NCBI GenBank assembly: GCA_016185525.1 | Contig: JACPNK010000002.1 | Span: forward strand, 75,616-139,615 | Direction of reading: 5' to 3' | DNA length: 64,000 nucleotides | DNA from: Candidatus Yanofskybacteria bacterium | Lineage (GTDB): Bacteria > Patescibacteriota > Minisyncoccia > 2-02-FULL-40-12 > IGHO2-12-FULL-4 | Part shown: positions 4,660-49,520 of the stretch, in pieces | Layout of the letters: every line of letters begins with the position of its first letter | Position numbering within the stretch: position 1 is the stretch's first letter | Program-made: the position numbers and the translations under genes | The notes under the pieces: generated by a model | Seen by the model: only the letters and a program-made list of their open reading frames with translations | What the model was told of the DNA's origin: nothing | Databases searched by the model: none

Positions 4660-6117
4660 ATGTCTTTGGAAGATATAAAACAGGTAAAACTGGAAAAGTT
4701 GGAACTGCTTAAGAAAGCTGGGGTTGACCCTTACCCGGCCAAGTCTTGGCGCACGCATGAAATTAAGCAGGCTCTGGAAAATTTTGAAAAACTTTCTGAA
4801 GAGAAAGAAAGGATAGTTTTGGTCGGTCGGGTTATGGCTAAGCGAGAACATGGAGCATCTGTGTTTTTGGATATTCAAGATACCAGTGCCCAAACTCAAG
4901 TTTATTTTAAAAAAGATGTCATTGGCGACTATGACTATGAGCTTTTTTCCAAAACCGTTGATATCGGAGATTTTATTGAGGTTTCCGGTTTTTTATTTAA
5001 AACAAAAAAAGAAGAAAAAACTTTGGAAGTTGAGAAGTATCGGATGCTGGCAAAGTCTTTTTTGCCTTTGCCGGAAAAATGGCACGGACTGCAAGATATT
5101 GAGGAGCGTTTCCGCAAAAGATATTTGGATTTGATTTTTAATCCCGAAGTCAAGGAAAAGTTTGAGATGCGCAGTAAGATAGTCCAAACTTTGCGGGATT
5201 TCATGGTTGGGAACGAATTTATGGAAGTGGTGACGCCGACACTACAGCCTCTCTATGGCGGGGCTTCGGCTCGGCCGTTTAAAACACATATGCACGACTT
5301 GGATATAGATCTGTATTTACGTATTGCGCCGGAGCTTTATCTCAAAAGGCTTTTGGTTGGCGGTTTTGAAAAAGTTTTTGAATTTACGACTAACTTTCGA
5401 AATGAGGGCATGGACCGGGACCACAATCCTGAATTTTCTGTGTTGGAATTTTATGCCGCTTACAAAGATTTGGATTGGCTGATGAATTTTACCGAAGAAA
5501 TTTTTGAAAATTTGCTGGTTCAGGTTTTCGGCCAGGTGAAAATAAAATATGAAGACAAAGAGATTGATTTTGCTCGGCCTTTTAAAAGAGCTAGATTCAA
5601 TGATTTGCTTAAGAAATATTGCGATCTTGATTACGAAACAAACAGCGAAGATGAATTTTGGAACAAAGCCGAGAAATTAAATGTTAAAATAGAAAAAAAA
5701 GTCGCTAAGCCGGGTTTGGCTGACGAACTGTTTAAAAAAGTTGTCAGGCCAAAATTGCTAGAGCCGATTTTTGTGACTGATTGGCCGGCTGATGTTCTGC
5801 CTTTGGCTAAGAAAATATACAATTCTGATTTCGTAAACGCTTTTCAATTTTTTGCGGGCGGGAACGAACTTATAAAAGCGTTTCAGGAGTTGAATGATCC
5901 TTTGGATCAGCGCGCAAGATTTGAAGTCCAAGAAAACAGACGGGCAAAGGGCGAAGAAGAAGCCCAAAGAATGGATGAAGACTTTATTGAAGCCCTAGAA
6001 TATGGCATGCCGCCGGCGGCCGGCTGGGGCTTGGGAATTGACCGTTTGATAGCCATGCTCACCGATTCCCATTCGGTCAGAGAAGTGATATTGTTTCCAC
6101 TGATGAAACCAAGATAA
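4660..6117 (+). CDS. lysS: lysine--tRNA ligase, class II
   Basis: Class II motifs FEFTTNFRNEGMDRDHNPEF, GGASARPF, EYGMPPAAGWGLGIDRL; table ORF starts at alternative TTG 4633 but ATG 4660 (MSLEDIKQ) is the likely start. Confidence 0.95.
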   Translation: MSLEDIKQVKLEKLELLKKAGVDPYPAKSWRTHEIKQALENFEKLSEEKERIVLVGRVMAKREHGASVFLDIQDTSAQTQVYFKKDVIGDYDYELFSKTVDIGDFIEVSGFLFKTKKEEKTLEVEKYRMLAKSFLPLPEKWHGLQDIEERFRKRYLDLIFNPEVKEKFEMRSKIVQTLRDFMVGNEFMEVVTPTLQPLYGGASARPFKTHMHDLDIDLYLRIAPELYLKRLLVGGFEKVFEFTTNFRNEGMDRDHNPEFSVLEFYAAYKDLDWLMNFTEEIFENLLVQVFGQVKIKYEDKEIDFARPFKRARFNDLLKKYCDLDYETNSEDEFWNKAEKLNVKIEKKVAKPGLADELFKKVVRPKLLEPIFVTDWPADVLPLAKKIYNSDFVNAFQFFAGGNELIKAFQELNDPLDQRARFEVQENRRAKGEEEAQRMDEDFIEALEYGMPPAAGWGLGIDRLIAMLTDSHSVREVILFPLMKPR

Positions 6118-6218
6118 GTTATAAAGTTTATCAAGTTATAAAGTTCATAAAGTAAGAACAGAATATAAAACTTTAAGAACTTTCAACTTTACAAACTTGA
6201 TGAACTTGCGCAAAGCGC

Positions 6219-27756: not shown

Positions 27757-27827
27757 TGCCGGGTGGTGAAGCGGTATCACGCCTGCCTTTGAAGCAGGAA
27801 TCCTAGGTCCGACCCCTAGCCCGGCAG
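27757..27827 (+). tRNA. tRNA-Gln (anticodon UUG)
   Basis: Cloverleaf: acceptor UGCCGGG/CCCGGCA (U1:A72, G73 as in bacterial tRNA-Gln), D-stem GUGA/UCAC with GG in loop, anticodon stem CCUGC/GCAGG loop CUUUGAA, T-stem CUAGG/CCUAG; no encoded CCA. Confidence 0.8.
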
Positions 27828-27829
27828 CA

Positions 27830-28582
27830 ATGAAATTCCCAAAAGATTTTATAAATAAGATTGTCTGCGGTGATGTTTTAGATGTGATGAGGCAGATCCC
27901 GGACGGCTCTATTGATTTAGTAATTACTTCACCGCCGTATAATCTCAAGAACTCTACCGGCAATGGCATGAAAGACGGGCGCGGCGGTAAATGGGCGAAC
28001 GCCGCATTACAAAAAGGTTATTCTCATCATAACGATAATATGCCTCACGAAGAATATGTTAAGTGGCAAAAGGATTGTCTTACAGAAATGATGCGGATTA
28101 TTCCGGACCACGGCGCAATCTTTTATAACCACAAGAGACGCGTTCAGGACGGCATATTACAGGATCGCCAAGATATAGTGAGTGGTTTTCCGGTACGCCA
28201 AATTATAATTTGGAAGCGTAAGGGTGGGTTCAACTTTAATCCCGGTTATTTTCTTCCCATTCACGAAGTTATTTATCTTATCGCAAAGCCAAAGTTTCAA
28301 CTTGTCCCTAAAGCCAATGCCCATGGTGATGTCTGGGAATTTACGCAAGAAATGAAAAATAAACATCCGGCTGCTTTTCCGGTTGATTTAATTGACCGGA
28401 TTGTTTCATCTACTAATGCCCAAACTATTTTAGACCCCTTCATTGGCTCCGGTACTACGGCAATCTCCGCTATCAATTATAAAAGAAATTATATTGGGAT
28501 TGAGATTTCTCCCGAATACTGTAAAATGGCACAACAAAGGATTAAAGGCCATAAATCTCAAGACCCCTTTTTATTACAATGA
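27830..28582 (+). CDS. DNA methyltransferase, beta-class N4-cytosine/N6-adenine (N6_N4_Mtase family)
   Basis: Motif IV SPPY (LVITSPPYN) near N-terminus and motif I DPFIGSGTT near C-terminus; starts 3 nt after tRNA. Confidence 0.9.
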   Translation: MKFPKDFINKIVCGDVLDVMRQIPDGSIDLVITSPPYNLKNSTGNGMKDGRGGKWANAALQKGYSHHNDNMPHEEYVKWQKDCLTEMMRIIPDHGAIFYNHKRRVQDGILQDRQDIVSGFPVRQIIIWKRKGGFNFNPGYFLPIHEVIYLIAKPKFQLVPKANAHGDVWEFTQEMKNKHPAAFPVDLIDRIVSSTNAQTILDPFIGSGTTAISAINYKRNYIGIEISPEYCKMAQQRIKGHKSQDPFLLQ

Positions 28583-29376
28583 AAAAAGAACCAGTTATTT
28601 ATACAAAACCGGCGCTTATAAAAAAGCTCAAAGAAATTGCCGCTCTGGGTTGGATTAAGAATGCTCGTCATGGCAATCAGGGCGGTGTTGGAAATACTTT
28701 AGAAGATTTGCTTGGTATAGAGGAAAACAATTTACCGATTCCCAACGCGGCCGAATGGGAGCTAAAGACACAAAGATTAAATTCCGGCTCTTTGTGTACT
28801 CTTTTTCATATGGAGCCATCGCCAAGGGCTATTGGATTTGTTCCAAAAGTCCTTTTGCCTAAATATGGCTGGGCTCATCAGGAGGACGGTAAAAAATATG
28901 CTAAAGGAGAGCTAAGTTTCCGATTGACTATCCACGGTCTTTCTAGGAGCGATCGCGGATTCATGGTTAAGATAGACCGGGCGGAAAAAAGGGTATTAAT
29001 CTCCTTTAATTCTAAAAGTGTAGATGTGCGGCACAAGAAATGGCTTAAATCAGTTGAGAAGCGTATAGGGTTAGGCGAATTAAACCCGCAACCCTATTGG
29101 GGGTTTGACGATTTAGAGCATAAAGCCGGCACTAAACTACTAAATGCTTTTTATGTTCAGGCCGAAGTTAAAAAGATACGAGGCAAAGAATATTACAAAT
29201 ATAGTAAGGTTATGATGTTGCAGAAGTTTAGTTTTGAGGGATTTTTGAGGGCCATCGAGGAAGCGCGAATTCTTGTAGATTTTGATGCCCGCACCGGCCA
29301 TAATCACGGGACGAAATTTAGGGTAAGGGAAGATAGTTTGCCGATGTTATATCAGAAAATAACTACCATATTATGA
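28579..29376 (+). CDS. Type II restriction endonuclease, MvaI/BcnI family
   Basis: Collinear pattern matches with BcnI/MvaI as recalled (GGVGNTLEDLLGIEENN..AEWELKT..SLCTLFHMEP; C-terminal GHNHGTKFRV..LPMLYQKI); ATGA overlap with MTase. Confidence 0.7.
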   Translation: MKKEPVIYTKPALIKKLKEIAALGWIKNARHGNQGGVGNTLEDLLGIEENNLPIPNAAEWELKTQRLNSGSLCTLFHMEPSPRAIGFVPKVLLPKYGWAHQEDGKKYAKGELSFRLTIHGLSRSDRGFMVKIDRAEKRVLISFNSKSVDVRHKKWLKSVEKRIGLGELNPQPYWGFDDLEHKAGTKLLNAFYVQAEVKKIRGKEYYKYSKVMMLQKFSFEGFLRAIEEARILVDFDARTGHNHGTKFRVREDSLPMLYQKITTIL

Positions 29377-30104
29377 AAAACATAAAAGAATCCAAACCCT
29401 GGAAAGTTGGTAAAAAGGTGAACGACTTCTTACTTCACTGGATTGGTTTTGATTTAATCATCTTCTTCATTTTGGTTGTATTGAGTGCTATCTTTATTTA
29501 TTTTGATCCTCGGTCTGATTTTAATAAACTCGCCGTTTCTTTAATTCTTTTGACAACGGCATTATCACTTATTCAATATACCAAAGAGACACACAGGCTT
29601 AGGCTTTCAAATAAATGGCTCCTCGATAGCAACGATAAATCAAACAGTATAGCAGTAAGGCCGATACTTGCACCACGTTTTTTAGAGACAAATTACGGTA
29701 CTTCTAATTATATTTCGATTAATCTAAAGAATGTAGGAGGAGGGGTTGCGAAGAATATCCACTGGAGTATTAAATCAAATAAAGATTCAGATGTTCTGGC
29801 CGATAAAGATTTGTTTTGGAGGGATTTGAACAAAGACTTATTACCTAAACTTTGGCCTAACTTTGGGTATAGACTAACAATGTTCAAGAAAATGAATTAT
29901 GACAATCTGTGGAAATCCATTCTTGTCGTTAAGTATGATTGGGAATTTGGGAACAACGAAACTGAAACTTTTCCGTTAGACCTAGATTATTACACATCCT
30001 CTGACTTATCCGGAAATGTCTTGGAAATGTTGGACGATGTCTGGGTTCATGGAAAAATTAGAGAAATTGCAATTCAGCGCATTGAATCACAGTCAAAGGA
30101 ATAA
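29373..30104 (+). CDS. hypothetical protein with two N-terminal TM helices (243 aa), translationally coupled to REase
   Basis: ATGA overlap with REase stop; no recognisable domain. Confidence 0.55.
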   Translation: MKNIKESKPWKVGKKVNDFLLHWIGFDLIIFFILVVLSAIFIYFDPRSDFNKLAVSLILLTTALSLIQYTKETHRLRLSNKWLLDSNDKSNSIAVRPILAPRFLETNYGTSNYISINLKNVGGGVAKNIHWSIKSNKDSDVLADKDLFWRDLNKDLLPKLWPNFGYRLTMFKKMNYDNLWKSILVVKYDWEFGNNETETFPLDLDYYTSSDLSGNVLEMLDDVWVHGKIREIAIQRIESQSKE

Positions 30105-30127
30105 GGTAAGTTTATCTTTTATAAGAC

Positions 30128-30358
30128 ATGTATATATTTAAATTTGTCTATTCTAATCTAGGTCTTATCCTAAACACACTAGGTAGTATTTTAGTAGTTG
30201 TATCTATTGGTAAATTTCCAGATGGTTTTGGTGGATCAACGACAAGTAATAAAGGTAGAGAATATCACTTTGCCTATGTAACTAGACCAACGGGTTTGAG
30301 AGCAGGTCTCTTGTTAATAATTCTAGGGTTTATCCTACAGATATTAGAGAAATATTAA
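30128..30358 (+). CDS. small 2-TM membrane protein (76 aa)
   Basis: Two hydrophobic helices; 23 nt after previous gene. Confidence 0.4.
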   Translation: MYIFKFVYSNLGLILNTLGSILVVVSIGKFPDGFGGSTTSNKGREYHFAYVTRPTGLRAGLLLIILGFILQILEKY

Positions 30359-30461
30359 TGTTGTATTAAATAGTTTCTAATGTCAGTCAGTGCCCGGCAG
30401 CCATCCTTCGCCAAGGCTTCGGAATGGCTTTGGCAAAACTTATGAAAGCTACGAACGAGCT

Positions 30462-30566
30462 GACCACGACGGGTCAAGAATGAATACGCCACCCGGGTGG
30501 CGTATTGAGGAGAACGGTATTTGCATTGCCCTTCCGAAATCCGCCAAATGGCAGAAGAAGGAGGGA
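30462..30566 (+). repeat. GC-rich repeat copy A (85-nt identical core 30482-30566 with perfect 24-bp palindrome AATACGCCACCCGGGTGGCGTATT); candidate structured RNA/mobile element
   Basis: Identical to 32836-32920; degenerate similarity extends upstream to ~30400. Confidence 0.85.
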
Positions 30567-30632
30567 CACCTTTTCCGGACCAAAGGTCGAAGTCAGATTT
30601 ACGCAGGGTGTTTTAATTGATATACTAGGTCT

Positions 30633-30833
30633 ATGCAAAAAATAGCTACAAAAATTTTCGTCTGGGCGTCCGTCGCTTTCGCCATCATCGGAATGCTGAT
30701 GGTTTTAACCACCTCTCCCACAAGTAACGGTCCGAACGTTATTTTGTTAAAATTTCTGTTCGCGGCTATTATCGTTATTTTGACCTCATTTGCCTTAAGC
30801 ATTGCCGGCAAGTATCTAAACGGTAAGTTTTAG
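30633..30833 (+). CDS. small membrane protein (66 aa)
   Basis: Two TM helices; weak. Confidence 0.3.
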   Translation: MQKIATKIFVWASVAFAIIGMLMVLTTSPTSNGPNVILLKFLFAAIIVILTSFALSIAGKYLNGKF

Positions 30834-30971
30834 TTCTAATGTGGCCAAGGAAATTAAATTTGTATAATAAGTTATGCGCATAAACAAATTTTACAAACTA
30901 GTTATTTCAGTTGCGTTGGTCACCGGCGAGAGGCGCGGCATATTTTTCATAGAACAATATGTAAGAATATC

Positions 30972-31598
30972 ATGATAAAAGCATTGATTTTTGATGTTGG
31001 AGGCGTCTTATTTTTAGCTAAAAGCAGAAAAGAAAAAAACCTTTTGTCTTCGTTTAATGAAGCGTGTTTATTGCTGGAGAATTTTGGGATAGATGTGACA
31101 AGCTCTAAAGAAAAACTTACTGGTATTTATAAGAAATCTTCTGGGGGCGATATAACTAGAGAAGAAACACTAGCTCTTATGTCCACAGAGCTGGGAGTAA
31201 CGCAAACGCAGCTAGAAGAATATTTTAGAAGAGTTTATTCAGATAACTCAATAGAGAACAAAGAACTCTATGGCCATATATTAAAATTTAAAAAAGATGG
31301 ACTTAAGATTGGAATTTTATCTACTCAGTTTCATCTATCCAAAGATGTTTTGGTTCCAGCCAAATACTACGAAAACTTTGATGCTTTGGTAATATCATGT
31401 GACGATAAATTGAAAAAACCCGAAGAGAAATCTTTTATATTAATACTCCGGAGGTTGGGCGTAAAACCAGAAGAGACTATTTTTATAGACGATAAGCAAG
31501 AAAATTTGGATATCGCTGAAAAATTAGGAATGAAATCCGTCCTATTTAAAAACAACAAGCAATTTTTCTCTAAGCTAAAAAAGTTTGATATTGAATAA
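30972..31598 (+). CDS. HAD-superfamily hydrolase (subfamily IA-like)
   Basis: Motif I IFDVGGVLF, motif IV IFIDDKQENLD. Confidence 0.8.
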   Translation: MIKALIFDVGGVLFLAKSRKEKNLLSSFNEACLLLENFGIDVTSSKEKLTGIYKKSSGGDITREETLALMSTELGVTQTQLEEYFRRVYSDNSIENKELYGHILKFKKDGLKIGILSTQFHLSKDVLVPAKYYENFDALVISCDDKLKKPEEKSFILILRRLGVKPEETIFIDDKQENLDIAEKLGMKSVLFKNNKQFFSKLKKFDIE

Positions 31599-31642
31599 TT
31601 AGGAAAGAAAAGGCACAGTGTAAAATATGATAATTTGCGCTT

Positions 31643-32056
31643 ATGGTGCATAGTTTAAGTTATTTAATGGAAGCAGAAAAAATCCAAGATGGCGACTTGG
31701 AGGGTTTAGGTATTGAAATTAAAGATAGAACAGCTGACGGCGATCGTATGCTTGTTATACCCGATGACCGGTTGCCCCAATACATTGAACTTGTAAAGGA
31801 TAAACTAACCAATGGCTTTTGGAACGAAATAGTGGGCGAAAAGGACATAATTTTCATTTTCAAGTTTCAAGATGGGCATATTGAAGAATATAAGCTGTCT
31901 CCAGAAAACGAGAGGGAAATAGATAAGCTGTGCGCCGAGTTTAATAATGAACCACCAGATAAAACGACAAATGTTTATAAATACATATCAGATAATAAGT
32001 TTTATCACGATTTTATGATGGAGCATTACAAAGATATGATTGAGAGAAAGCTATGA
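31643..32056 (+). CDS. hypothetical protein (start possibly 31667)
   Basis: ATGA overlap with downstream kinase gene. Confidence 0.45.
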   Translation: MVHSLSYLMEAEKIQDGDLEGLGIEIKDRTADGDRMLVIPDDRLPQYIELVKDKLTNGFWNEIVGEKDIIFIFKFQDGHIEEYKLSPENEREIDKLCAEFNNEPPDKTTNVYKYISDNKFYHDFMMEHYKDMIERKL

Positions 32057-32643
32057 AGACCATTTTTATAGGCATTGTTGGTCCATCTGGTTCTGGCAAG
32101 ACAACTCTTTGCAAAAAGCTGAAGTTGTCTAACAAAAATCACGAACACATAAGATTAGATAACTATTTTAAGAACCCTCAGACTTTTCCACTAAAGAACG
32201 GCTTCCGAAACTGGGAAAAACCATCTAACCTTAAATTTGATGTTTTATTGAAGCATTTGAAAGCATTACAAAACGGCAAAGAAGTTCATACAAAATCGTT
32301 TCCCAAGAGAGCAGGAGCTAAACCAACTCCAATAACACTAAAACCTAAACCGATTATCCTTATTGAGGGCTTTATGCTTTTTAAGGACAAGAGGGTGCGA
32401 GATATGCTTGATGTTAAGATTTACCTGGAAATACATCCCGAACTGATGCTTAAACGCCGAGCTATTAGATTCGGAGAAGCTCATATAACCGACTATGATA
32501 CTAAAGTTGCCATTCCAGAATTTTTGAAACACGGCACTACCCAAAAGAAATATGCCGATTATGTGGTTGATGCCACAAGGTCACAACCCCAAGTAATTAA
32601 AGAGGTTCAAAAAATAATTAACCAAAACCTTACCAACTTCTAA
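32053..32643 (+). CDS. uridine kinase/phosphoribulokinase-family P-loop nucleoside kinase
   Basis: IGIVGPSGSGKTT Walker A, RLDNYF, ILIEGFMLF; 196 aa. Confidence 0.7.
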   Translation: MKTIFIGIVGPSGSGKTTLCKKLKLSNKNHEHIRLDNYFKNPQTFPLKNGFRNWEKPSNLKFDVLLKHLKALQNGKEVHTKSFPKRAGAKPTPITLKPKPIILIEGFMLFKDKRVRDMLDVKIYLEIHPELMLKRRAIRFGEAHITDYDTKVAIPEFLKHGTTQKKYADYVVDATRSQPQVIKEVQKIINQNLTNF

Positions 32644-32815
32644 CAAATCCAAACGGCAGGTACAATTCTATACCTGCCAGTCGGGCACCGAATGGTACCC
32701 GATGATGAAGGGCCGGTTATGCCCATAATTGAGGTTCTAATATCGTCCAAGAAACGCAGCAGTCCCGTGACAGGCTTTGCCCGTCCATAGCCCCTTGACG
32801 AAGGAGGGTTCTTGC

Positions 32816-32920
32816 GACCACGACCTGTCAAAAACGAATACGCCACCCGGGTGGCGTATTGAGGAGAACGGTATTTGCATTGCCCTTCCGAAATCCGCCA
32901 AATGGCAGAAGAAGGAGGGA
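32816..32920 (+). repeat. GC-rich repeat copy B (85-nt core 32836-32920 identical to copy A)
   Basis: Direct repeat 2354 bp downstream of copy A; tails diverge but both contain ttttccggacc. Confidence 0.85.
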
Positions 32921-33117
32921 TGTTTTTCAATTCAACGATGGGGGATGGGGGCAACCGGCCCAGCAACAAGAACGGCGTTTTCCGGACCGTAGCATAAAGC
33001 GGGCCTGTGGATAATCGTTGACTTTAATTGTTTAGGTATGATAGTATATGAGTGTGCTTGTGGGCGAAAGCCCCGTTCAGCTAAGGAACACCTAAGCTGA
33101 AGGCAGGCACAACAAAA

Positions 33118-33140
33118 ACACCGCTTTAAGCGGTATTTTT
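33118..33140 (-). terminator. bidirectional hairpin caccgcttta-agcggt with flanking A/T runs
   Basis: On minus strand hairpin followed by UUUUUGUUGUG directly after stop of 33142..33603. Confidence 0.55.
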
Positions 33141-33141
33141 G

Positions 33142-33603
33142 TTACTCATCTTCAATTCCTTCAGTAAAAAGCTTCTGGCCATTTTTAAGCTTAGAGTATG
33201 GCATTACACTCCAAAATATAATATTGCCATCACCAACCCTTCTCAATACTGTTCTTATCTTAATTTGATTTTCTCCGACTATAGCCACAAATCCCCAGTA
33301 GGCAATGTTCTTTGTTTTTGAAAAACCGTCCCTTCCCTTCTTTCCAATTTCTACTAAACCTCTCCTAAACTCCTGCAATGTTCCGGCGTTTTTAATAATC
33401 TGAATAGCCAACGGTAATAAACTAAATTTCAGTAGCTGTTCCTTTTTGTCTCTTTCTCTTCGTGCTGAGAACTGGAGATGGTGAAATCCATCAGAATTGA
33501 AGATAACCTGACTTTTAAGATAAGGATTGGAAATGCTCTTTTGCTTGTTATATATTGTTCTTGCCTTTTCTTTTCGTTGATTGAAATATTCAACATCATC
33601 CAT
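33142..33603 (-). CDS. hypothetical protein (153 aa)
   Basis: ORF only; lone minus-strand gene at edge of accessory segment. Confidence 0.45.
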   Translation of the reverse strand: MDDVEYFNQRKEKARTIYNKQKSISNPYLKSQVIFNSDGFHHLQFSARRERDKKEQLLKFSLLPLAIQIIKNAGTLQEFRRGLVEIGKKGRDGFSKTKNIAYWGFVAIVGENQIKIRTVLRRVGDGNIIFWSVMPYSKLKNGQKLFTEGIEDE

Positions 33604-33730
33604 ATCTAAGGATATTAGCTTATTTTATCTAAAACACAACCAATCGTACCACTAAAGAAAGAATATTCTTGACTTGAAAAAGAAGGTTTTTGGTTTCGGC
33701 TTAATTTTTGTTAGAATAGACGCGTCCCAC

Positions 33731-35029
33731 ATGAATGAAAACAAAAACTACTGGTGGAAAGATGCCATAATCTACGAAGTTTATGTAGATAAATTTGCGG
33801 ATAATTTCAGGGGGCTGACTGAAAAATTAAATTATCTGTCGGATTTGGGTATTAACTGCATCTGGCTTTTGCCGCATTTTCCGTCGCCGATGGTAGACGA
33901 CGGATATGATGTTTCCGATTATTATAATGTAAGAAACAGCCTTGGAAGTCTTGATGATTTTGAGGTTTTTATAAAAGCGGCGCATGCCAGGGGAATAAGA
34001 GTTATAATTGACTTAGTCTTGAATCATTTTTCAACAGAGCATCCTTGGTTTAAGGAAGCAAGGCATTCCGTTGATAACTCTAAAAGAAATTACTTTATCT
34101 GGAGTAAAAACGCAGAAGGACTTCGCGGTTCTTTTAATCCTTTCTTCCACTTGACACCGGGCAATTGGATATATAATCCCAAGACGGACGACTATTATTA
34201 CGCTTCATTTTTTGCGGAGCAGGCGGATTTGAATTGGGATAACCCGGATGTTTTTGGGGAGGTTATAAAAATTATAAATTTTTGGGCCGGACTTGGCGTT
34301 GACGGTTTCCGTCTTGATGCTGTAGCTCACCTGATCAAAAGGGAAGGAACGTTTTCCCTGCACCAACCAAGGGTTCATGACATTCTGAAAGATATTAGAA
34401 AATACATGGATAACAACTATCCGGGCGTGATTATGCTGGCTGAAGCCGGCGGGAAGATTGAACAAATCATACAATATTTCGGCAAGGGCGATGAGTGCCA
34501 CATGGCTTTTAACTTTCCACTGATGTCTAATATTTATTTGGCCGTTAAGAGGAATGACACAAAACTTCTCGAGGGACTTGTGAAGAATTCTTCAGGTATT
34601 CCAGACAACTGTCAATGGGCTACTTTTGTAAGCAACCACGACGAAATTACTCTGGCTTCACTGGAAGAAACGATACGAGATGAAGTCACCGCTTGGCTTG
34701 ATCCGAAGGGAGAATTTTCGTTCAGAGGCGGGCGGGGCGTTTCTATGCGTTTGGCTTCGATTTTTAAGAACAATCCTGATTTGATTGTTTTTATTTTGAG
34801 CTTGTTATTCAGTCTGCCCGGCGCGCCGGTAATTTATTACGGTTCGGAGATAGGTATGAAAAATCTTGCGCTGGAGAATGAGTTTGTTGACAGCCGCCGT
34901 TATGTAAGAGGACAATTTGACTGGCTTCAGGCTGAAGAACAGATGCGCGACTCTAATTCGTTGTTAAACAAAGTTAAAGAGATTATTCGACAACGCAAAG
35001 AGAGACAAACCGGAGTGAAAAGTTCTTAA
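33731..35029 (+). CDS. alpha-amylase family (GH13) enzyme, trehalose-synthase-like catalytic domain
   Basis: WWKDAIIYEVYVDKF, LGINCIWLLPHFPSPMVDDGYDVSDY, GFRLDAVAHL, GH13 regions; ATG 33731 preferred. Confidence 0.85.
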   Translation: MNENKNYWWKDAIIYEVYVDKFADNFRGLTEKLNYLSDLGINCIWLLPHFPSPMVDDGYDVSDYYNVRNSLGSLDDFEVFIKAAHARGIRVIIDLVLNHFSTEHPWFKEARHSVDNSKRNYFIWSKNAEGLRGSFNPFFHLTPGNWIYNPKTDDYYYASFFAEQADLNWDNPDVFGEVIKIINFWAGLGVDGFRLDAVAHLIKREGTFSLHQPRVHDILKDIRKYMDNNYPGVIMLAEAGGKIEQIIQYFGKGDECHMAFNFPLMSNIYLAVKRNDTKLLEGLVKNSSGIPDNCQWATFVSNHDEITLASLEETIRDEVTAWLDPKGEFSFRGGRGVSMRLASIFKNNPDLIVFILSLLFSLPGAPVIYYGSEIGMKNLALENEFVDSRRYVRGQFDWLQAEEQMRDSNSLLNKVKEIIRQRKERQTGVKSS

Positions 35030-36634: not shown

Positions 36635-37177
36635 ATGAACAACAATTTGGTGAGAGATTTGGCGCTTATAATCTTTAGCATTTTTATTGCCGTTATTCTT
36701 GCTAAAACCGGCATCCTTAAGGATCTAATTACTTCAACTCAAGAAGTGAGGTTTGTCGGCAGTTTTGTCGCCGGCATTTTATTCGTCTCTGTTTTTACCG
36801 CTGCTCCCGCCACCGTAGCTCTTGGAGAAATAGCTCAATCAAATTCTGTCATTACGGTAGCTATTATTGGCGGATTGGGCGCTTTAATCGGAGACCTCCT
36901 AATTTTTAGGTTTGTAAGAGACAGAGTTTACCAAGATTTTACTTATCTGGTTAAGGTATCGAAGTCGGAAAGACTCGTTTCCATTTTTAAATTAAAACTT
37001 TTTAGATTGCTCATTCCTTTTATCGGGGCTTTGATAGTCGCTTCTCCCTTGCCGGATGAGGTGGGGTTGGCGATGCTAGGATTATCAAGAATAAAAACCT
37101 CCGTGTTTATCCCGCTGTCTTTTTTGCTTAACTCTGCCGGGATTTTAATTATTGGTTTAATTGCTAAGACACTATGA
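36635..37177 (+). CDS. hypothetical polytopic membrane protein (180 aa)
   Basis: 5-6 TM helices. Confidence 0.45.
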   Translation: MNNNLVRDLALIIFSIFIAVILAKTGILKDLITSTQEVRFVGSFVAGILFVSVFTAAPATVALGEIAQSNSVITVAIIGGLGALIGDLLIFRFVRDRVYQDFTYLVKVSKSERLVSIFKLKLFRLLIPFIGALIVASPLPDEVGLAMLGLSRIKTSVFIPLSFLLNSAGILIIGLIAKTL

Positions 37178-44504: not shown

Positions 44505-45002
44505 ATGGAAAATAAAAAATTTGAAGAGTTAATCAAAAAAATCCAGAAAGCAAAACAAAGCGGCGGCTTGGATTTGTCATTGGAAGAAGATTTGAGCATA
44601 GCTATTATGAACTTGGTCAGCCTGGAAGAACACTTCTTTTTCACAGCCTCTAAAACGGAAAAGCCGGAATATTTTGATTTGTTAAACGAAGTCAGAAGCA
44701 TCCGCAAGGCTCTTCTTGGAAGAATGATTAAAAATTCGGAAGGCGAAGTCTGGTGTATTTCTAAGCATCTTCTGGCCGGAACCATGAGGCTTGCGGAAGT
44801 AGGCACAAAGTACTTGTCAGAAGGAAAAAAGAAAGATGCCGAAGAAGTTTTTGGACAGGCCTACAAACTTTACTCGCTGTTTTGGGCGGTTCGTTTGAAA
44901 TTGACAGACATCTCCGGGTTGAAAAAGACTGACGACCCTAAAAAGCCATGGTCATTTGAGGATATAGTAAATAAACTTGTTGACTGTTGTGAAGAAAGAT
45001 AA
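44505..45002 (+). CDS. hypothetical protein (165 aa)
   Basis: ORF only. Confidence 0.45.
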   Translation: MENKKFEELIKKIQKAKQSGGLDLSLEEDLSIAIMNLVSLEEHFFFTASKTEKPEYFDLLNEVRSIRKALLGRMIKNSEGEVWCISKHLLAGTMRLAEVGTKYLSEGKKKDAEEVFGQAYKLYSLFWAVRLKLTDISGLKKTDDPKKPWSFEDIVNKLVDCCEER

Positions 45003-45013
45003 ACAACTAACAT

Positions 45014-45919
45014 ATGTTCAATATAAAAAAAATAAAAATTGAAGATAAATATATTTTACCCTTAAGTATTTTGGTTTCAGCAGTAGTTATTTCCGGCGCT
45101 TGGGTCTACATATCAAGGCTTAGTCTTGATGAAAAAAGAGGAGATTTGAGTGCTTCCGCGCTTAAAAAAATTGAAGAAAAAATTCTGCCGAAAAAAGGTT
45201 TCGTTCTGCCTGTTAAGTGGGGAGACCTTGGAATAAGATTAACAGAAGCCGGAGTAATTGATGCGGAAAAGTTTGAATCGCTTTATAATGAAAGAAGCAG
45301 ACTTGACCCGGAAAGCAAACAACTGCTCTCCGGGGCGGAAAACGACTCGCTGAAGATTACTCCCGACAATTCGCAGGTTCTGCTTAATCTTTTATGGGCC
45401 TTGGGCTTGGGCAACAAGAACGACATTTTAGAGAAAGGGGAGATGGTTGATGAAAGATATGGCGGAGCGGACAAATTTGCTTCCACCGGTGGCTGGACGT
45501 TGGCAAAAGGCAATTCTATGGATCATTATTCAAAACATGGCTTTGTGGTTTTGACGCCCGAACAGCAAGCGTTGGTTGAAAGCGTCTCAAAAAATATATA
45601 CCGTCCGTGTTGCGGCAATTCCACTCACTTTCCTGATTGTAACCATGGCATGGCTATGCTTGGATTGCTTGAATTGATGGCTTCGCAGGGTATATCCGAA
45701 AAAGATATGTACAAATATGCTTTGCAGGTCAATTCTCTCTGGTTCCCCGACACCTATCTGAATATCGCCAAGTACCTGAAAATAAAAAAGATTGACTGGA
45801 ATAAAGTTGAACCAAAAGAACTTCTCGGAGCCAACTTCTCCAGCGCTTCCGGTTACCGTCAAGTTTTGTCGCAAATCCAGCCGGAAACCAAACAAGGCGG
45901 GGGAGGTTGCGGAATTTAA
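45014..45919 (+). CDS. hypothetical secreted protein with Cys cluster (RPCCGNSTHFPDCNHG)
   Basis: N-terminal TM/signal; possible metal site. Confidence 0.45.
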   Translation: MFNIKKIKIEDKYILPLSILVSAVVISGAWVYISRLSLDEKRGDLSASALKKIEEKILPKKGFVLPVKWGDLGIRLTEAGVIDAEKFESLYNERSRLDPESKQLLSGAENDSLKITPDNSQVLLNLLWALGLGNKNDILEKGEMVDERYGGADKFASTGGWTLAKGNSMDHYSKHGFVVLTPEQQALVESVSKNIYRPCCGNSTHFPDCNHGMAMLGLLELMASQGISEKDMYKYALQVNSLWFPDTYLNIAKYLKIKKIDWNKVEPKELLGANFSSASGYRQVLSQIQPETKQGGGGCGI

Positions 45920-45932
45920 CATCAATAAATTT

Positions 45933-48134
45933 ATGGAAAATATTAAACAAACTTATACCTGTCCGATGCATCCGGAAGTTATCAGAAATGAACCGGGGCT
46001 TTGTCCCGGTTGCGGCATGGCGCTGATACCGAAAACGTCTGCGGCCAAAGAAGACAAACCGGATGGCTACGATATTTCAGAGCTAAGCCACAAGAACCAC
46101 GAAGCGGCGATGCCTGCCCGCCATAGCCTTGGCGACGGAGGGACCAACCCGCAAATGGCCAAGAAAATGGAGCAGGATATGCGCCGCCGGTTTTGGGTTT
46201 CTTTTTTGCTTTCAATTCCGATTTTTCTTTATTCGCCGGTAGGTGAAAAGGTGCTTGGTTTGGTTCTGTTTTCGCCGATATCAATCAACTGGTTGCTCTT
46301 GATTCTGACTACGCCGATTGTTTTTTGGACCGGTTCAATTTTCATAACCGGCACTTATTATTCACTCAAAGCCCGCAAGCTTAATATGTCGGTGCTTATC
46401 GCCACCGGCGTTCTGGCGGCGTATCTTTTCAGTGTTCTGCTGACTTTATTGCGTCCGGAGTCAGAAACATTTTACGAAGCGGCAGCTCTTTTGGTGACTT
46501 TTGTTTTGTTCGGCCATTGGATGGAAATGAAATCCCGCCGCGGCACGTCCGATGCCTTGCGCGCTCTTTTTGATTTGGTTCCGCCGCAAGCTAGAGTTGT
46601 AAGAGATGGCAGAGAAGTTTCTGTTCCCAGCTCTGAAATTATTCATAACGATATTGTGGTTCTCCGGCCCGGCGACAAGGTGCCGGTTGACGGCATAGTC
46701 ACAGAAGGAGAAAGCGCGATTGACGAATCGCTGGTTACCGGCGAGTCAATTCCGGTTTCAAAAAAGAACGGCGATAAAGTTATCGGTGGTTCGGTAAATC
46801 AAACCGGCACGGTTAAATTTAAAGCCACTCAAGTCGGTTCGGAAACGGTTCTGGCTCATATTATTAAGCTTGTGGAAACGGCGCAAAATTCCAAAGCGCC
46901 GGGACAGCGCATTGCCGACACAGCGGCCGGTTGGCTGGTGGTTGTTGCCGTCGGTTCGGGATTGGCGGCATTTTTTGGCTGGTATTTCGGCGCCGGCGCC
47001 GGACTTCTTACAGCTCTTACTTTTGCGATTTCAACGGTAGTAATCGCTTGTCCTGACGCTCTCGGCCTTGCCACGCCGACAGCCGTCGCTGTCGGCACCG
47101 GCATCGGCGCCAAACACAATATTCTTATCAAAGATGCGGCGACTCTTGAGAACACTTCCCGGATTAACGCCATCATTTTGGACAAAACCGGCACGCTCAC
47201 GGAAGGAAGACCGAAAGTCACAGACGTTGTGGCGCTTAACGGTTTCAACGAACACGATGTTTTGCGCTACGAAGCCAGTTTGGAAGCCGGTTCCAATCAT
47301 CCTCTATCCAAATCTATTTTTGAAGAGACCGTAAAACGTAACGCCTTGCCGCTTGAACCGATAGAAAACTTTGAGTCAATCGCCGGTTACGGACTTAAGG
47401 CGCGAATTGCCGGTAAAATTGTTTTTGCCGGAAAAGAGAAACTGCTTCAGAACAACGGTATCGCCACCGAGCCGATGAGAAACGTTCTTGACCAACTTGC
47501 CGGAGAAGGGAAGACTTTAAGCTTATTAGCTGTTGATGGAATTTTTGCGGGTGTTGTTGCCGCTGCAGATCCGCCGCGGCCCAATTCTAAAAAAACCGTA
47601 GCGGCGCTCAAAAAACTCGGCATGGAAGTGGTGATGATTACGGGAGACCACGCAAAAGTGGCGGAAGGCGTCGGAAAGGAGCTGGGCATTGACCGGGTTT
47701 TTGCCGAAGTTTTGCCTGAAGACAAAGCAAAGTATGTTAAAAAATTGCAAAGTGAAGGCAAATTTACGGCGATGGTCGGCGACGGCATCAATGATGCGCC
47801 GGCACTAGCGCAAGCGGATATCGGCATAGCCATCGGCGCCGGTACTGATGTCGCCATTGAAACCGGCAACATTGTGCTGATGAAATCCGACCCTTACGAT
47901 ATTGTTGCCGCTTTGCGTTTGAGCAAAGCTACGGTTACCAAAATGAAACAGAATCTTTTTTGGGCGGCGATTTACAACTTGCTGGCTATTCCCGTTGCCG
48001 CCGGAGTGTTTTATAATTCTCTTGGTTGGTCTTTGCGTCCGGAAATTTCCGCTCTGCTGATGTCGGCCTCTTCAATAATTGTTGCAACTAACGCCGTGCT
48101 GTTGAAAAGAGTAGAGCCTGGGCTTAAAAAATGA
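45933..48134 (+). CDS. P1B-type heavy-metal (probably copper) translocating ATPase
   Basis: N-terminal YTCPMHPE...GLCPGCGMAL metal-binding module; DKTGTLT, GDGINDAPAL, TGD; TM CPx motif reads CPD (IACPDALGLATP). Confidence 0.9.
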   Translation: MENIKQTYTCPMHPEVIRNEPGLCPGCGMALIPKTSAAKEDKPDGYDISELSHKNHEAAMPARHSLGDGGTNPQMAKKMEQDMRRRFWVSFLLSIPIFLYSPVGEKVLGLVLFSPISINWLLLILTTPIVFWTGSIFITGTYYSLKARKLNMSVLIATGVLAAYLFSVLLTLLRPESETFYEAAALLVTFVLFGHWMEMKSRRGTSDALRALFDLVPPQARVVRDGREVSVPSSEIIHNDIVVLRPGDKVPVDGIVTEGESAIDESLVTGESIPVSKKNGDKVIGGSVNQTGTVKFKATQVGSETVLAHIIKLVETAQNSKAPGQRIADTAAGWLVVVAVGSGLAAFFGWYFGAGAGLLTALTFAISTVVIACPDALGLATPTAVAVGTGIGAKHNILIKDAATLENTSRINAIILDKTGTLTEGRPKVTDVVALNGFNEHDVLRYEASLEAGSNHPLSKSIFEETVKRNALPLEPIENFESIAGYGLKARIAGKIVFAGKEKLLQNNGIATEPMRNVLDQLAGEGKTLSLLAVDGIFAGVVAAADPPRPNSKKTVAALKKLGMEVVMITGDHAKVAEGVGKELGIDRVFAEVLPEDKAKYVKKLQSEGKFTAMVGDGINDAPALAQADIGIAIGAGTDVAIETGNIVLMKSDPYDIVAALRLSKATVTKMKQNLFWAAIYNLLAIPVAAGVFYNSLGWSLRPEISALLMSASSIIVATNAVLLKRVEPGLKK

Positions 48135-48149
48135 TATAATGTTTAAGTT

Positions 48150-48620
48150 ATGGACTTTTCTTTTTTAACTTACAAACCTGTTTTGATCGGTCTGCATCTG
48201 GGTTTTGCCATTCTGGGAATTGATGCTTTTTTGTGGCTGACAGGTGAATTTTTAGCAAACACTTTTGGAAAATTAAGAGTTAAAATTGCGGCTGTAATCG
48301 GCGTTGCCGGTTTTGCTTTAAGCTGGCTAGCCGGCGGTTATTATTATGTGGTTTATTACGGCAAATTGGTAAAACCGGTGATAAAAGAAGGTGTTGCGCC
48401 TTGGGCTCATGCGATTTTTATGGAAACAAAAGAGCATATTTTCCTTTTTGTAATCCCACTGGCGGTTACGGCTTTGCTTCTGGCATTTCTCAAAAGAGAG
48501 GAGATAAAGGAATATAATTTGTCCCGTTTGGCGACTGTTTTAGTGGTATTAATTGCTTTACTGGGACTTTTAATCGGAGCGATGGGTTACATTATTTCAG
48601 CCGCCGCCCGTTGGGGCTAA
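48150..48620 (+). CDS. hypothetical membrane protein (156 aa)
   Basis: 4-5 TM. Confidence 0.4.
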   Translation: MDFSFLTYKPVLIGLHLGFAILGIDAFLWLTGEFLANTFGKLRVKIAAVIGVAGFALSWLAGGYYYVVYYGKLVKPVIKEGVAPWAHAIFMETKEHIFLFVIPLAVTALLLAFLKREEIKEYNLSRLATVLVVLIALLGLLIGAMGYIISAAARWG

Positions 48621-48659
48621 GTAAAAAAATTTTTTTAAATTTTATTTTTTAAGTATTGT

Positions 48660-48980
48660 ATGAAATCTCTTAAACTAATTTACTCTTCGGCGGTTGCCGC
48701 GATTGTTTCCGTAATTTTTACGGTTGCCATTACGGTTTTGGGCGAACTCTCCGTTCCGCTCAAAAACTGGCTGACCGATTTTTCCGGACACCATTGGACC
48801 AGTAAAAGCATATTTTCCGTTTTGATTTATTTTGTTGTCTGGGGTTTGGCCTATTTCTACTCCGGCGCGGTTTCAGCCAAAACTGTCCGCAGAGCTTTGA
48901 TCAATCTGATTATTTTTTCCGTGGCTGGAATTTTAGCAGTGTTTTTATTTTTTACCGCTCACTATTTAAATTTTTTTTAA
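48660..48980 (+). CDS. hypothetical membrane protein (106 aa)
   Basis: 3 TM. Confidence 0.35.
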   Translation: MKSLKLIYSSAVAAIVSVIFTVAITVLGELSVPLKNWLTDFSGHHWTSKSIFSVLIYFVVWGLAYFYSGAVSAKTVRRALINLIIFSVAGILAVFLFFTAHYLNFF

Positions 48981-48990
48981 TTAAAACTTT

Positions 48991-49467
48991 ATGACAAAAT
49001 TTCAAAAAATATTTTTGTTTTTACTTCGTCTGGCTATGGGCTGGCTGATGTTTTATGCGGGCATAACAAAAATTATTAACCCCAGCTGGTCAGCGGAAGG
49101 TTACTTAAAAAGCGCCAAAACTTTTGCCGGATTGTTTAACTGGTTCGCTTCACCGGAAATTCTGCCGGTTACCAACTGGCTTAACGAATGGGGCTTGACG
49201 ATTCTGGGAATTTCTTTGATTTTGGGAATTTTTGTAAGGCTGACTTCAATTTACGGCGTTGTTTTGATGCTTCTTTATTATTTTCCAGTTCTGGATTTTC
49301 CGTATGCTGGCGAACATTCTTTCATAATTGATGAGCATATAATCTATGCGTTAGTTTTGCTGTTCTTTGCCGCTATCCGCGCCGGCCGCGTTTGGGGTTT
49401 GGAAAACCGGTGCGCAAGACTGCCCATTTGCTCAAAGTTTCCGAGATTAAGAAACTGGCTCGGCTGA
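48991..49467 (+). CDS. DoxX-family membrane protein
   Basis: LRLAMGWLMFYAGITKIINPSW... typical DoxX start. Confidence 0.6.
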   Translation: MTKFQKIFLFLLRLAMGWLMFYAGITKIINPSWSAEGYLKSAKTFAGLFNWFASPEILPVTNWLNEWGLTILGISLILGIFVRLTSIYGVVLMLLYYFPVLDFPYAGEHSFIIDEHIIYALVLLFFAAIRAGRVWGLENRCARLPICSKFPRLRNWLG

Positions 49468-49492
49468 TATAGTTATCAGGTAACGGTATCAG

Positions 49493-49520
49493 TATAAAAA
49501 AACCGAGCTAGGCTCGGTAG
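49493..49520 (-). terminator. intrinsic terminator accgagc-tag-gctcggt with U-run on minus strand
   Basis: Downstream of NUDIX gene stop. Confidence 0.5.

Follow-up and report, generated by a model that had tools for sequence, protein, structure and literature searches.

The segment at positions 27830-33638 of a 64,000-nt stretch of Candidatus Yanofskybacteria DNA (Parcubacteria, Candidate Phyla Radiation, CPR; the whole stretch is referred to here as the window) is probably a lineage-specific accessory mosaic, located at an insertion hotspot at the 3' end of a tRNA-Gln gene and with a history of successive insertions. The most fitting name for it is a decayed mosaic island, as it is adjacent to a tRNA gene and variable in content, lacks an integrase and is now immobile. 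The segment is replaced by other DNA in every relative, its edges coincide with the tRNA gene and with the promoter region of the GH13 gene, its composition is deviant, and it carries a methyltransferase-endonuclease (M-R) cassette that is shared with other genomes as well as two GC-rich repeats that are homologous to the trailers of tRNA-Gln genes.

The segment is delimited by the following features:

27757-27828 (+), tRNA-Gln(UUG; anticodon ttg), identified by ARAGORN and Rfam (tRNA, 59.7 bits), left edge of the variable segment
27819-27828 (+), first direct-repeat copy, GCCCGGCAGC, the 3' end of tRNA-Gln, found by exact-match search of the window
33639-33673 (+), right edge, conserved GH13 promoter region, where homology with the closest relative resumes
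33674-35029, GH13, profile match, next to the right edge of the segment
35034-36557 (-), GlgA, profile match

The source of the window was indicated by its MFS protein, a 100% identical match of which is named Candidatus Yanofskybacteria in its sources. To place the segment, loci around MFS homologues (one genome per species) and the contexts of closer homologues were compared; these fetched loci, which are related genomes or metagenome contigs, bear L-numbers. The order of genes for a type IV secretion system-like ATPase, GtrA, DnaX, MFS and tRNA-Gln is kept in about 20 Yanofskybacteria loci, whereas the sequence downstream of tRNA-Gln differs in each of them. When the proteins encoded up to 6 kb downstream of tRNA-Gln in 19 relatives were clustered with the island and downstream proteins of the window, 132 proteins fell into 113 families, 100 of which were singletons. 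The closest relative is L004 (DnaX 90%, MFS 77%, GH13 87% and GlgA 86% identical), which carries, between the two breakpoints of the segment, 6.9 kb of unrelated DNA whose first gene encodes a large serine recombinase. DNA homology to this locus ends at 27829, at the 3' end of tRNA-Gln, and resumes 35 nt ahead of GH13, at 33639, which sets the right boundary at 33638. In L018 and L115, tRNA-Gln and its trailer are directly followed by a homologue of the window's gene at 36635. GH13 and GlgA follow tRNA-Gln directly in none of about 20 relatives; the glycogen genes lie some kb downstream of it in L004, L009, L018 and L087. The composition of the segment is also unusual, as it ranks first among 233 equal-size windows by tetranucleotide Jensen-Shannon divergence and has a GC content of 0.385, compared to 0.411 for the window.

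The MFS-tRNA-methyltransferase junction on the left and the junction from the minus-strand gene unk153 to GH13 and GlgA are present in independent assemblies from other sequencing runs, and therefore neither of them is a chimera. The contigs of these assemblies break within the GC-rich repeats, as is usual for short-read assemblies at repeated sequence. A sequence-only reading of the window had proposed an accessory segment at this position and had named synteny and k-mer or GC deviation as ways of checking it, with a gene order conserved among relatives as the observation that would speak against it. Each feature that it listed was recovered at or near the coordinates it gave (ARAGORN, Rfam, Pfam and repeat search). 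The four upstream genes turned out to be conserved and the downstream order was seen in none of the about 20 loci, and the segment was the most deviant 5.8-kb stretch. Accessory status beside tRNA-Gln is therefore borne out by synteny and composition; the notion of one island is not, since the segment is a mosaic of separately distributed modules such as the M-R pair.

The relatives show what kind of element uses this site. In L004 the insert begins with a gene (L004:3874-5226) for a 450-aa large serine recombinase with Resolvase, Recombinase and Zn_ribbon_recom domains (phrog_95, 5e-63), followed by genes for a PAS histidine kinase, a response regulator and secreted proteins. The recombinase of L108 is 91% identical to that of L004 and has the same three domains; overall, the enzyme is 88-96% identical in L105, L108/L118 and L124, a fragment is left in L137, and a recombinase occupies the same site also in L032. 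The gene adjoins tRNA-Gln genes of both isoacceptors, including CUG, in different host contexts, and its hosts either have a DnaX only about 48% identical to that of the window or use the different tRNA-Gln gene (CUG). The gene and a structured trailer located directly 3' of tRNA-Gln are convergent in every case (L004, L105, L108, L118, L124 and L137). At the DNA level, L108 and L004 are 84% identical over 1.54 kb, and this similarity is confined to the last 27 nt of the tRNA, the GC-rich trailer of about 125 nt and the recombinase gene. As the two loci share nothing but these three parts, the recombinase-trailer unit is mobile and targets the 3' end of tRNA-Gln. Repeats of the attachment-site (att) type were looked for in L004 and none were found. 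The sequence just upstream of the recombinase gene of L004 includes a (CT)n microsatellite of about 30 nt (L004:5380-5425).

The trailer is found beyond these loci. When metagenomes were scanned with the 18-mer GGTTCTTGCGACCACGAC, 37 loci were obtained, of which about 17 were true trailers, most of them immediately after the 3' end of tRNA-Gln, and in 13 fetched loci the trailer directly follows tRNA-Gln. An alignment of eight trailers revealed three helices, the last of which is an intrinsic terminator, with a few compensatory changes; insertions, in the form of extra hairpins, are confined to loops or the linker, and the first 30 nt are nearly invariant between distant hosts. The tRNA-trailer junction can be interrupted: in L110, a Type I-like restriction-modification (R-M) block (N6_Mtase and a specificity subunit) lies exactly between the position of tRNA-Gln(CUG) and the trailer, and no recombinase occurs within the 6.2 kb of this locus. 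The junction is uninterrupted in L109 and L116, and L111 has a 22-nt scar. The unit of a tRNA-Gln-specific serine recombinase and a structured trailer, which is seen in relatives and not in the window, lies outside the ordinary; a literature search yielded no account of serine recombinases in CPR that target tRNA-Gln, or of a trailer beside them.

Within the segment, two GC-rich elements and an adjacent unit relate to this trailer:

30392-30620 (+), GC-rich element A, starting with GCCCGGCAGCCA (copy of the tRNA-Gln 3' end), followed by trailer-like structured sequence
32703-32968 (+), GC-rich element B, with junction motif, 18-mer and repeat core, closed by a 24-nt inverted repeat
33018-33143 (+), promoter-like site TTGACT-18-TAGTAT, two GC-rich hairpins and an intrinsic terminator

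The repeat cores at 30462-30566 (A) and 32816-32920 (B) are 105 nt each and 96% identical, with 84 nt exactly in common; weaker similarity takes in the flanks of the core over about 230-265 nt and is broken by insertions. The 9-mer GACCACGAC occurs within the window only at these two copies, against 0.13 expected. The sequence-only reading had seen both copies and described them as bracketing three genes, for a HAD hydrolase, an unassigned protein and a kinase. The two copies stand, although the bracketed set has four members, as it also includes a gene for a 66-aa membrane protein. The same reading had stated that no tRNA-derived direct repeat is visible, which has to be revised: the 10-mer GCCCGGCAGC with which the tRNA ends (27819-27828) is found again at 30392-30401, where copy A has its 5' edge, and hence in an internal position. 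There, the CA following the 10-mer completes an encoded CCA, as in the tRNA-Gln genes of L005 and others, and the similarity of copy A to the 3' arms of tRNA-Gln is attained by only 2 of the 207 CAGC sites in the window. Three exact copies of the 10-mer exist in the window, at 27819, 30392 and 549. The last is part of an 11-nt stretch (549-559, GCCCGGCAGCA) that is identical to the tRNA-Gln 3' end, lies within a long minus-strand reading frame and is judged to be due to chance.

Copy B carries GCAGC directly followed by AGTCCCGTGACAGG at 32756-32774, which agrees in 17/19 positions with the junction of tRNA end and trailer in L004 and L018, and, past a 32-nt insert, the exact 18-mer GGTTCTTGCGACCACGAC at 32807-32824, which is identical in the trailers of L004, L018 and about 15 metagenome loci. 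The trailer sequence AGTCCTGTGATAGGTTCTTGCGACCACGAC... is hence held by copy B in two blocks of 17/19 and 18/18, split by the insert and 4.9 kb away from tRNA-Gln. Compared to the trailer of tRNA-Gln(UUG) in L113, copy A is 89% identical over 46 nt (E 1.9e-10) and copy B 91% over 55 nt (E 2.7e-15), with E values computed in the 1.7-Mb set of fetched loci; the match of copy B includes the 18-mer by which L113 was fetched, while its other 37 nt and most of the match of copy A are independent. By these sequence matches, both copies are homologous to tRNA-Gln trailers, and our best inference is that they are relic element ends left by successive integrations. The unit at 33018-33143 overlaps the best match in the window to a covariance model of the trailers (33056-33148, E 0.023), which is largely terminator, and could be a small RNA or belong to trailer B as its 3' part. 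Copy A shows an RNA fold z of -2.3. Rfam searches at the gathering threshold found only tRNAs in the window and seven related loci, and in E-value mode only weak, chance-level matches over 30300-33200. Scans of viral contigs with a trailer 16-mer and the palindrome core gave chance matches only, with dissimilar flanks. A GC-rich sequence of 18-19 nt in copy A (CCTTCGCCAAGGCTTCGG, 30405-30423) is the exact reverse complement of a hairpin (L127:1076-1094) that is inserted in the P2 helix loop of the trailer in L127, which suggests that small hairpin modules insert in either orientation.

The first part of the segment is occupied by the M-R cassette:

27830-28582 (+), DNA methyltransferase, beta-class N4/N6 (PF01555, E 1.8e-39; PADLOC MTase_II, 4e-115)
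28579-29376 (+), MvaI/BcnI-family Type II restriction endonuclease (PF15515, E 2.6e-63; PADLOC REase_II, 1e-82)

Both genes score far above the family thresholds (136 bits against a cut-off of 26.7 for PF01555, 214 against 25 for PF15515) and overlap by 4 nt, in accordance with the Type II R-M operon that had been recognized right after tRNA-Gln from the sequence alone. PADLOC likewise called the pair Type II R-M, and no other defence family among the proteins of the window. The best solved relatives of the methyltransferase are annotated as 'DNA cytosine-N4 methyltransferase' (8s9n/8s9m, E 2.7e-38), suggesting that it is probably of the N4-cytosine type. The endonuclease is a full-length family member that matches R.MvaI with E 2e-17 (alignment of 239 residues) and R.BcnI with E 2.5e-5, and one homologue with 81% identity carries the source name 'NciI'. 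The sites CCSGG and CCWGG (observed/expected 0.77 and 0.55) are not specifically avoided in the window, and CCSGG is not below control words. The pair most likely methylates and cuts a site of the CCNGG type, a specificity that word counts cannot give, and probably represents a Type II defence or addiction module of the N4-methylcytosine type. The methyltransferase gene starts 2 nt past the end of tRNA-Gln. As this gap has no room for a promoter of its own, the operon is probably read through from the tRNA-Gln transcript, so that the R-M genes would be co-transcribed with the tRNA.

The endonuclease has thousands of homologues, and those with 77-93% identity occur in Parcubacteria, Microgenomates and Peregrinibacteria lineages. 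The M-R pair is located in unrelated neighbourhoods of other CPR phyla with no flanks in common, and in five other contexts the pair occurs alone. The endonuclease is about 80% identical across CPR phyla, compared to about 50% for DnaX within Yanofskybacteria, which indicates that the two-gene R-M cassette spreads horizontally. The distant Yanofskybacterium L016 has the same pair directly after its tRNA-Gln.

The history that we favour would start with trailer-bearing recombinase elements integrating at the 3' end of tRNA-Gln at least twice. An older integration would have left trailer B, beside the LPD3-like gene unk153, and another would have left trailer A with the genes for the 66-aa membrane protein, the HAD protein, unk137 and the kinase behind it; the recombinase genes of both elements would later have been lost. 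A 2.56-kb block consisting of the M-R pair and the genes for a 243-aa and a 76-aa membrane protein (27829-30391) would then have landed exactly between tRNA-Gln and trailer A. This block is bounded by the 10-nt repeat GCCCGGCAGC and may be compared to the R-M block between tRNA-Gln and trailer in L110. As no recombinase is left in the window, the region would now be fixed.

Several observations weigh against this history. No integrase, excisionase or recombinase remnant was detected in the window by Pfam, PHROG, tblastn or BLASTP, in line with the earlier statement that no integrase is visible. The far end (attR) of the recombinase element is defined in no locus, the hosts compared for it (L108 and L109) being too divergent, and the repeat of the tRNA end is absent at the outer boundary at 33638. 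When the 3' 42 nt of tRNA-Gln were aligned locally to the whole window, nothing above background was obtained at A or B beyond the 10-mer, a further exact copy of which sits by chance in the coding frame at 549, and the tRNA-like stretch ahead of copy B is not significant (p about 0.1). A covariance model of eight L004-type trailers misses both A and B at full length, with copy A appearing as a 16-nt hairpin at E 0.79. The evidence for trailer homology of the two copies thus comes from L113-type trailers and short exact blocks. Finally, unk137 is well conserved in CPR and also follows tRNA-Gln in L141, so that the content could be partly old.

This conservation of unk137 across Parcubacteria and its place in L141 also speak for an ancestral region, subject to lineage-specific loss and rearrangement in the relatives and without insertion at the tRNA. 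The HAD gene beside the glycogen genes in L009 and the position of the glycogen genes some kb downstream of tRNA-Gln in four relatives point in the same direction. We regard such an origin as improbable, since most downstream families are singletons (100/113), the composition is deviant, a mobile recombinase occupies the same site in relatives, and transfer is indicated by the endonuclease, which is about 80% identical across CPR phyla, compared to a DnaX identity of about 50% within the class. Still less probable, and indeed very unlikely, is that a single genomic island bounded by tRNA-Gln and 33638 arrived in one integration event. The single pair of breakpoints relative to the closest relative and the compositional deviation over the whole span would fit one event, but the modules are distributed separately (the M-R pair alone in five other contexts, unk137 with other neighbours), the two trailer copies and the tRNA-end repeat are internal rather than at the ends, and no att repeat is present at 33638.

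A mechanism of homologous recombination after DNA uptake, with tRNA-Gln, the trailer and core genes as anchors and in place of site-specific integration, is compatible with accessory status and is a real, if less likely, possibility. It would account for the lack of a recombinase in the window and in the 6.2 kb of L110 and for an M-R cassette without shared flanks between contexts, and the nearly invariant first 30 nt of the trailer would be a usable anchor between distant hosts. However, tRNA and invariant trailer block together provide a homologous stretch of less than 110 nt, which is short for recombination to be efficient, and simple allelic replacement would not be expected to duplicate 10 nt of the tRNA end at 30392. 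With regard to the repeats themselves, it is rather unlikely that they are working non-coding RNA genes or cis RNA elements, such as modules for tRNA 3' processing or termination, although this and their origin as element ends can both hold. The region 32645-33140 folds far better than shuffled sequences (z -4.0 on the plus strand, -6.0 on the minus strand), the trailer family has three helices with some compensatory changes and insertions only in loops and linker, and the 84 nt exactly common to A and B suggest constraint or recent copying. On the other hand, no Rfam family matches, A and B differ outside the core by large insertions and a clear terminator is wanting in A, and the repeats occur in no related locus except as L113-type trailers. 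Equally tentative is the proposal that the GC-rich repeats belong to an undescribed class of structured elements of 125-260 nt that moves with a large serine recombinase and marks a tRNA-Gln-specific integration module in CPR. As an RNA, the element could restore 3' processing and termination of the interrupted tRNA transcript, or could regulate or assist the recombinase. On this reading, the tRNA-trailer junction may also act as a landing pad that captures R-M cassettes, as in the window, L110 and L016.

The accessory mosaic that we favour is an ordinary tRNA-adjacent variable island with a defence cassette, a familiar kind of feature. Genomic islands linked to tRNA genes, including defence islands, are chromosomal integration hotspots, and the segment resembles them in its position 3' of a tRNA gene, conserved core flanks, variable content, deviant composition, R-M genes and an internal repeat of the tRNA end. 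It differs from them in lacking an integrase and a repeat at the outer edge and in its host, a CPR bacterium with a reduced genome; in addition, the element at this site in relatives has a large serine recombinase instead of the usual tyrosine integrase of tRNA islands. A closer parallel may be the SCC (staphylococcal cassette chromosome) islands of staphylococci, in which Ccr serine recombinases mediate integration at the 3' end of rlmH/orfX and in which pseudo-SCC elements without ccr occur in tandem. Common to both are serine-recombinase elements that target the 3' end of one conserved gene, tandem stacking, repeats at junctions and units without recombinase. In contrast to SCC, the target is a tRNA gene and the junction is a structured GC-rich sequence of 125-260 nt rather than a short direct repeat. 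The stacking in the window is inferred, and the likeness is meant as the nearest working analogy, with no sequence relation to Ccr claimed.

Mobile Type II R-M gene pairs have reportedly been described by Kobayashi and colleagues as inserting alone, sometimes with target duplication. The M-R pair of the window agrees with such cassettes as a two-gene unit with tight boundaries that recurs with about 80% identity in other phyla and in unrelated contexts, and its block is flanked by a 10-nt duplication; unlike them, the duplicated block also takes in two membrane-protein genes that are not companions of the cassette elsewhere. The full-length PF15515 endonuclease and a beta-class methyltransferase near N4-cytosine enzymes are as in the MvaI, BcnI and NciI systems, but identity to the solved enzymes is low and the CCSGG and CCWGG counts do not give the specificity. 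The recombinase of the relatives resembles large serine integrases of the phiC31/Bxb1 type in its Resolvase, Recombinase and zinc-ribbon domains and in its position at the end of the insert beside the attachment junction, and departs from them in its target, the tRNA-Gln 3' end with a structured trailer, as seen in relatives; it is absent from the window.

The genomes of CPR bacteria (Patescibacteria) are of small size, and classical mobile elements are usually said to be scarce in them. The locus provides a concrete, comparable example of sites of gene uptake and loss in these genomes: at one tRNA-Gln site, content turns over almost totally, and the recombinase retains about 90% identity between hosts that share about 50% in their core proteins. 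In annotation, the 5.8 kb is best regarded as strain-specific, and the GC-rich repeats as relics of element ends, not as genes. The window alone contributes no new mechanism.

The remaining genes of the segment are:

29373-30104 (+), 243-aa protein with N-terminal membrane anchor, from hydrophobic-segment prediction, no family match
30128-30358 (+), 76-aa protein with two predicted transmembrane segments, no family match
30633-30833 (+), 66-aa protein with two predicted transmembrane segments, no family match
30972-31598 (+), HAD-superfamily phosphatase, subfamily IA (PF00702, 2e-14)
31643-32056 (+), unk137, 137-aa CPR orphan family, from homologue search, no Pfam match
32053-32643 (+), P-loop kinase, uridine kinase/phosphoribulokinase-like (PF00485, 3e-17)
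33142-33603 (-), unk153, 153-aa stand-alone protein, distant relative of LPD3

The three small membrane proteins have one or two hydrophobic segments each; profile searches with them found no family, and they do not accompany the R-M pair at other loci. The gene for the 243-aa protein overlaps the stop codon of the endonuclease gene, and a promoter-like site (30598-30626) lies ahead of the gene for the 66-aa protein. The HAD protein is TIGR02247-like at 5e-29, under the cut-off of that model. For unk137, 402 homologues were found, which are 65-84% identical across Parcubacteria and mark it as a strongly conserved CPR orphan; elsewhere it is located in arrays of small genes (SET, NUDIX, kinases) with varying neighbours, and in L141 directly after DnaX and tRNA-Gln. 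The kinase gene overlaps the unk137 gene by 4 nt. A conserved HAD-unk137-kinase operon was considered and rejected, as unk137 has other neighbours at other loci. With a best E of 4e-28, the kinase remained under the cut-offs of the Udk equivalog models (98 against 180 bits for NF004018, 92 against 220 for TIGR00235); its profile matches make it a PRK-family P-loop kinase of uridine-kinase-like type. The HAD and kinase genes plausibly add capacity for nucleoside or sugar-phosphate salvage.

The protein unk153 belongs to a family of about 580 representatives (582 relatives), and 14 of 46 family members match PF18798 (LPD3; best 2.6e-5), a domain of polyvalent proteins of phages and conjugative elements. 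The protein itself stays under the PF18798 gathering score (16.3 bits against 27, E 0.011). Its AlphaFold2 (AF2) model, with a pLDDT of 92.7, matched LPD3 proteins in BFVD at probabilities of 0.85-1.0 and TM scores of 0.44-0.57, a moderate fold similarity. Judged from profiles and predicted structure, unk153 appears to be distantly related to LPD3 and to have a mobile-element flavour, yet it is not a member by the Pfam threshold.

Elsewhere, the strongest outlier of the window in tetranucleotide usage is the stretch 45000-49500 (z up to 4, GC 0.47-0.51). This stretch may likewise have been imported; it holds the gene for a heavy-metal P-type ATPase (45792-48134; E1-E2_ATPase, HMBD). At 6115-6206 there is an imperfect, AT-rich palindrome of about 85 nt (AAGTTATAAAGTT...), and a copy is located at L004:1429-1513 between DnaX and MFS, where the window has no spacer. 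This palindrome therefore looks like a small repeat similar to miniature inverted-repeat transposable elements (MITE-like).

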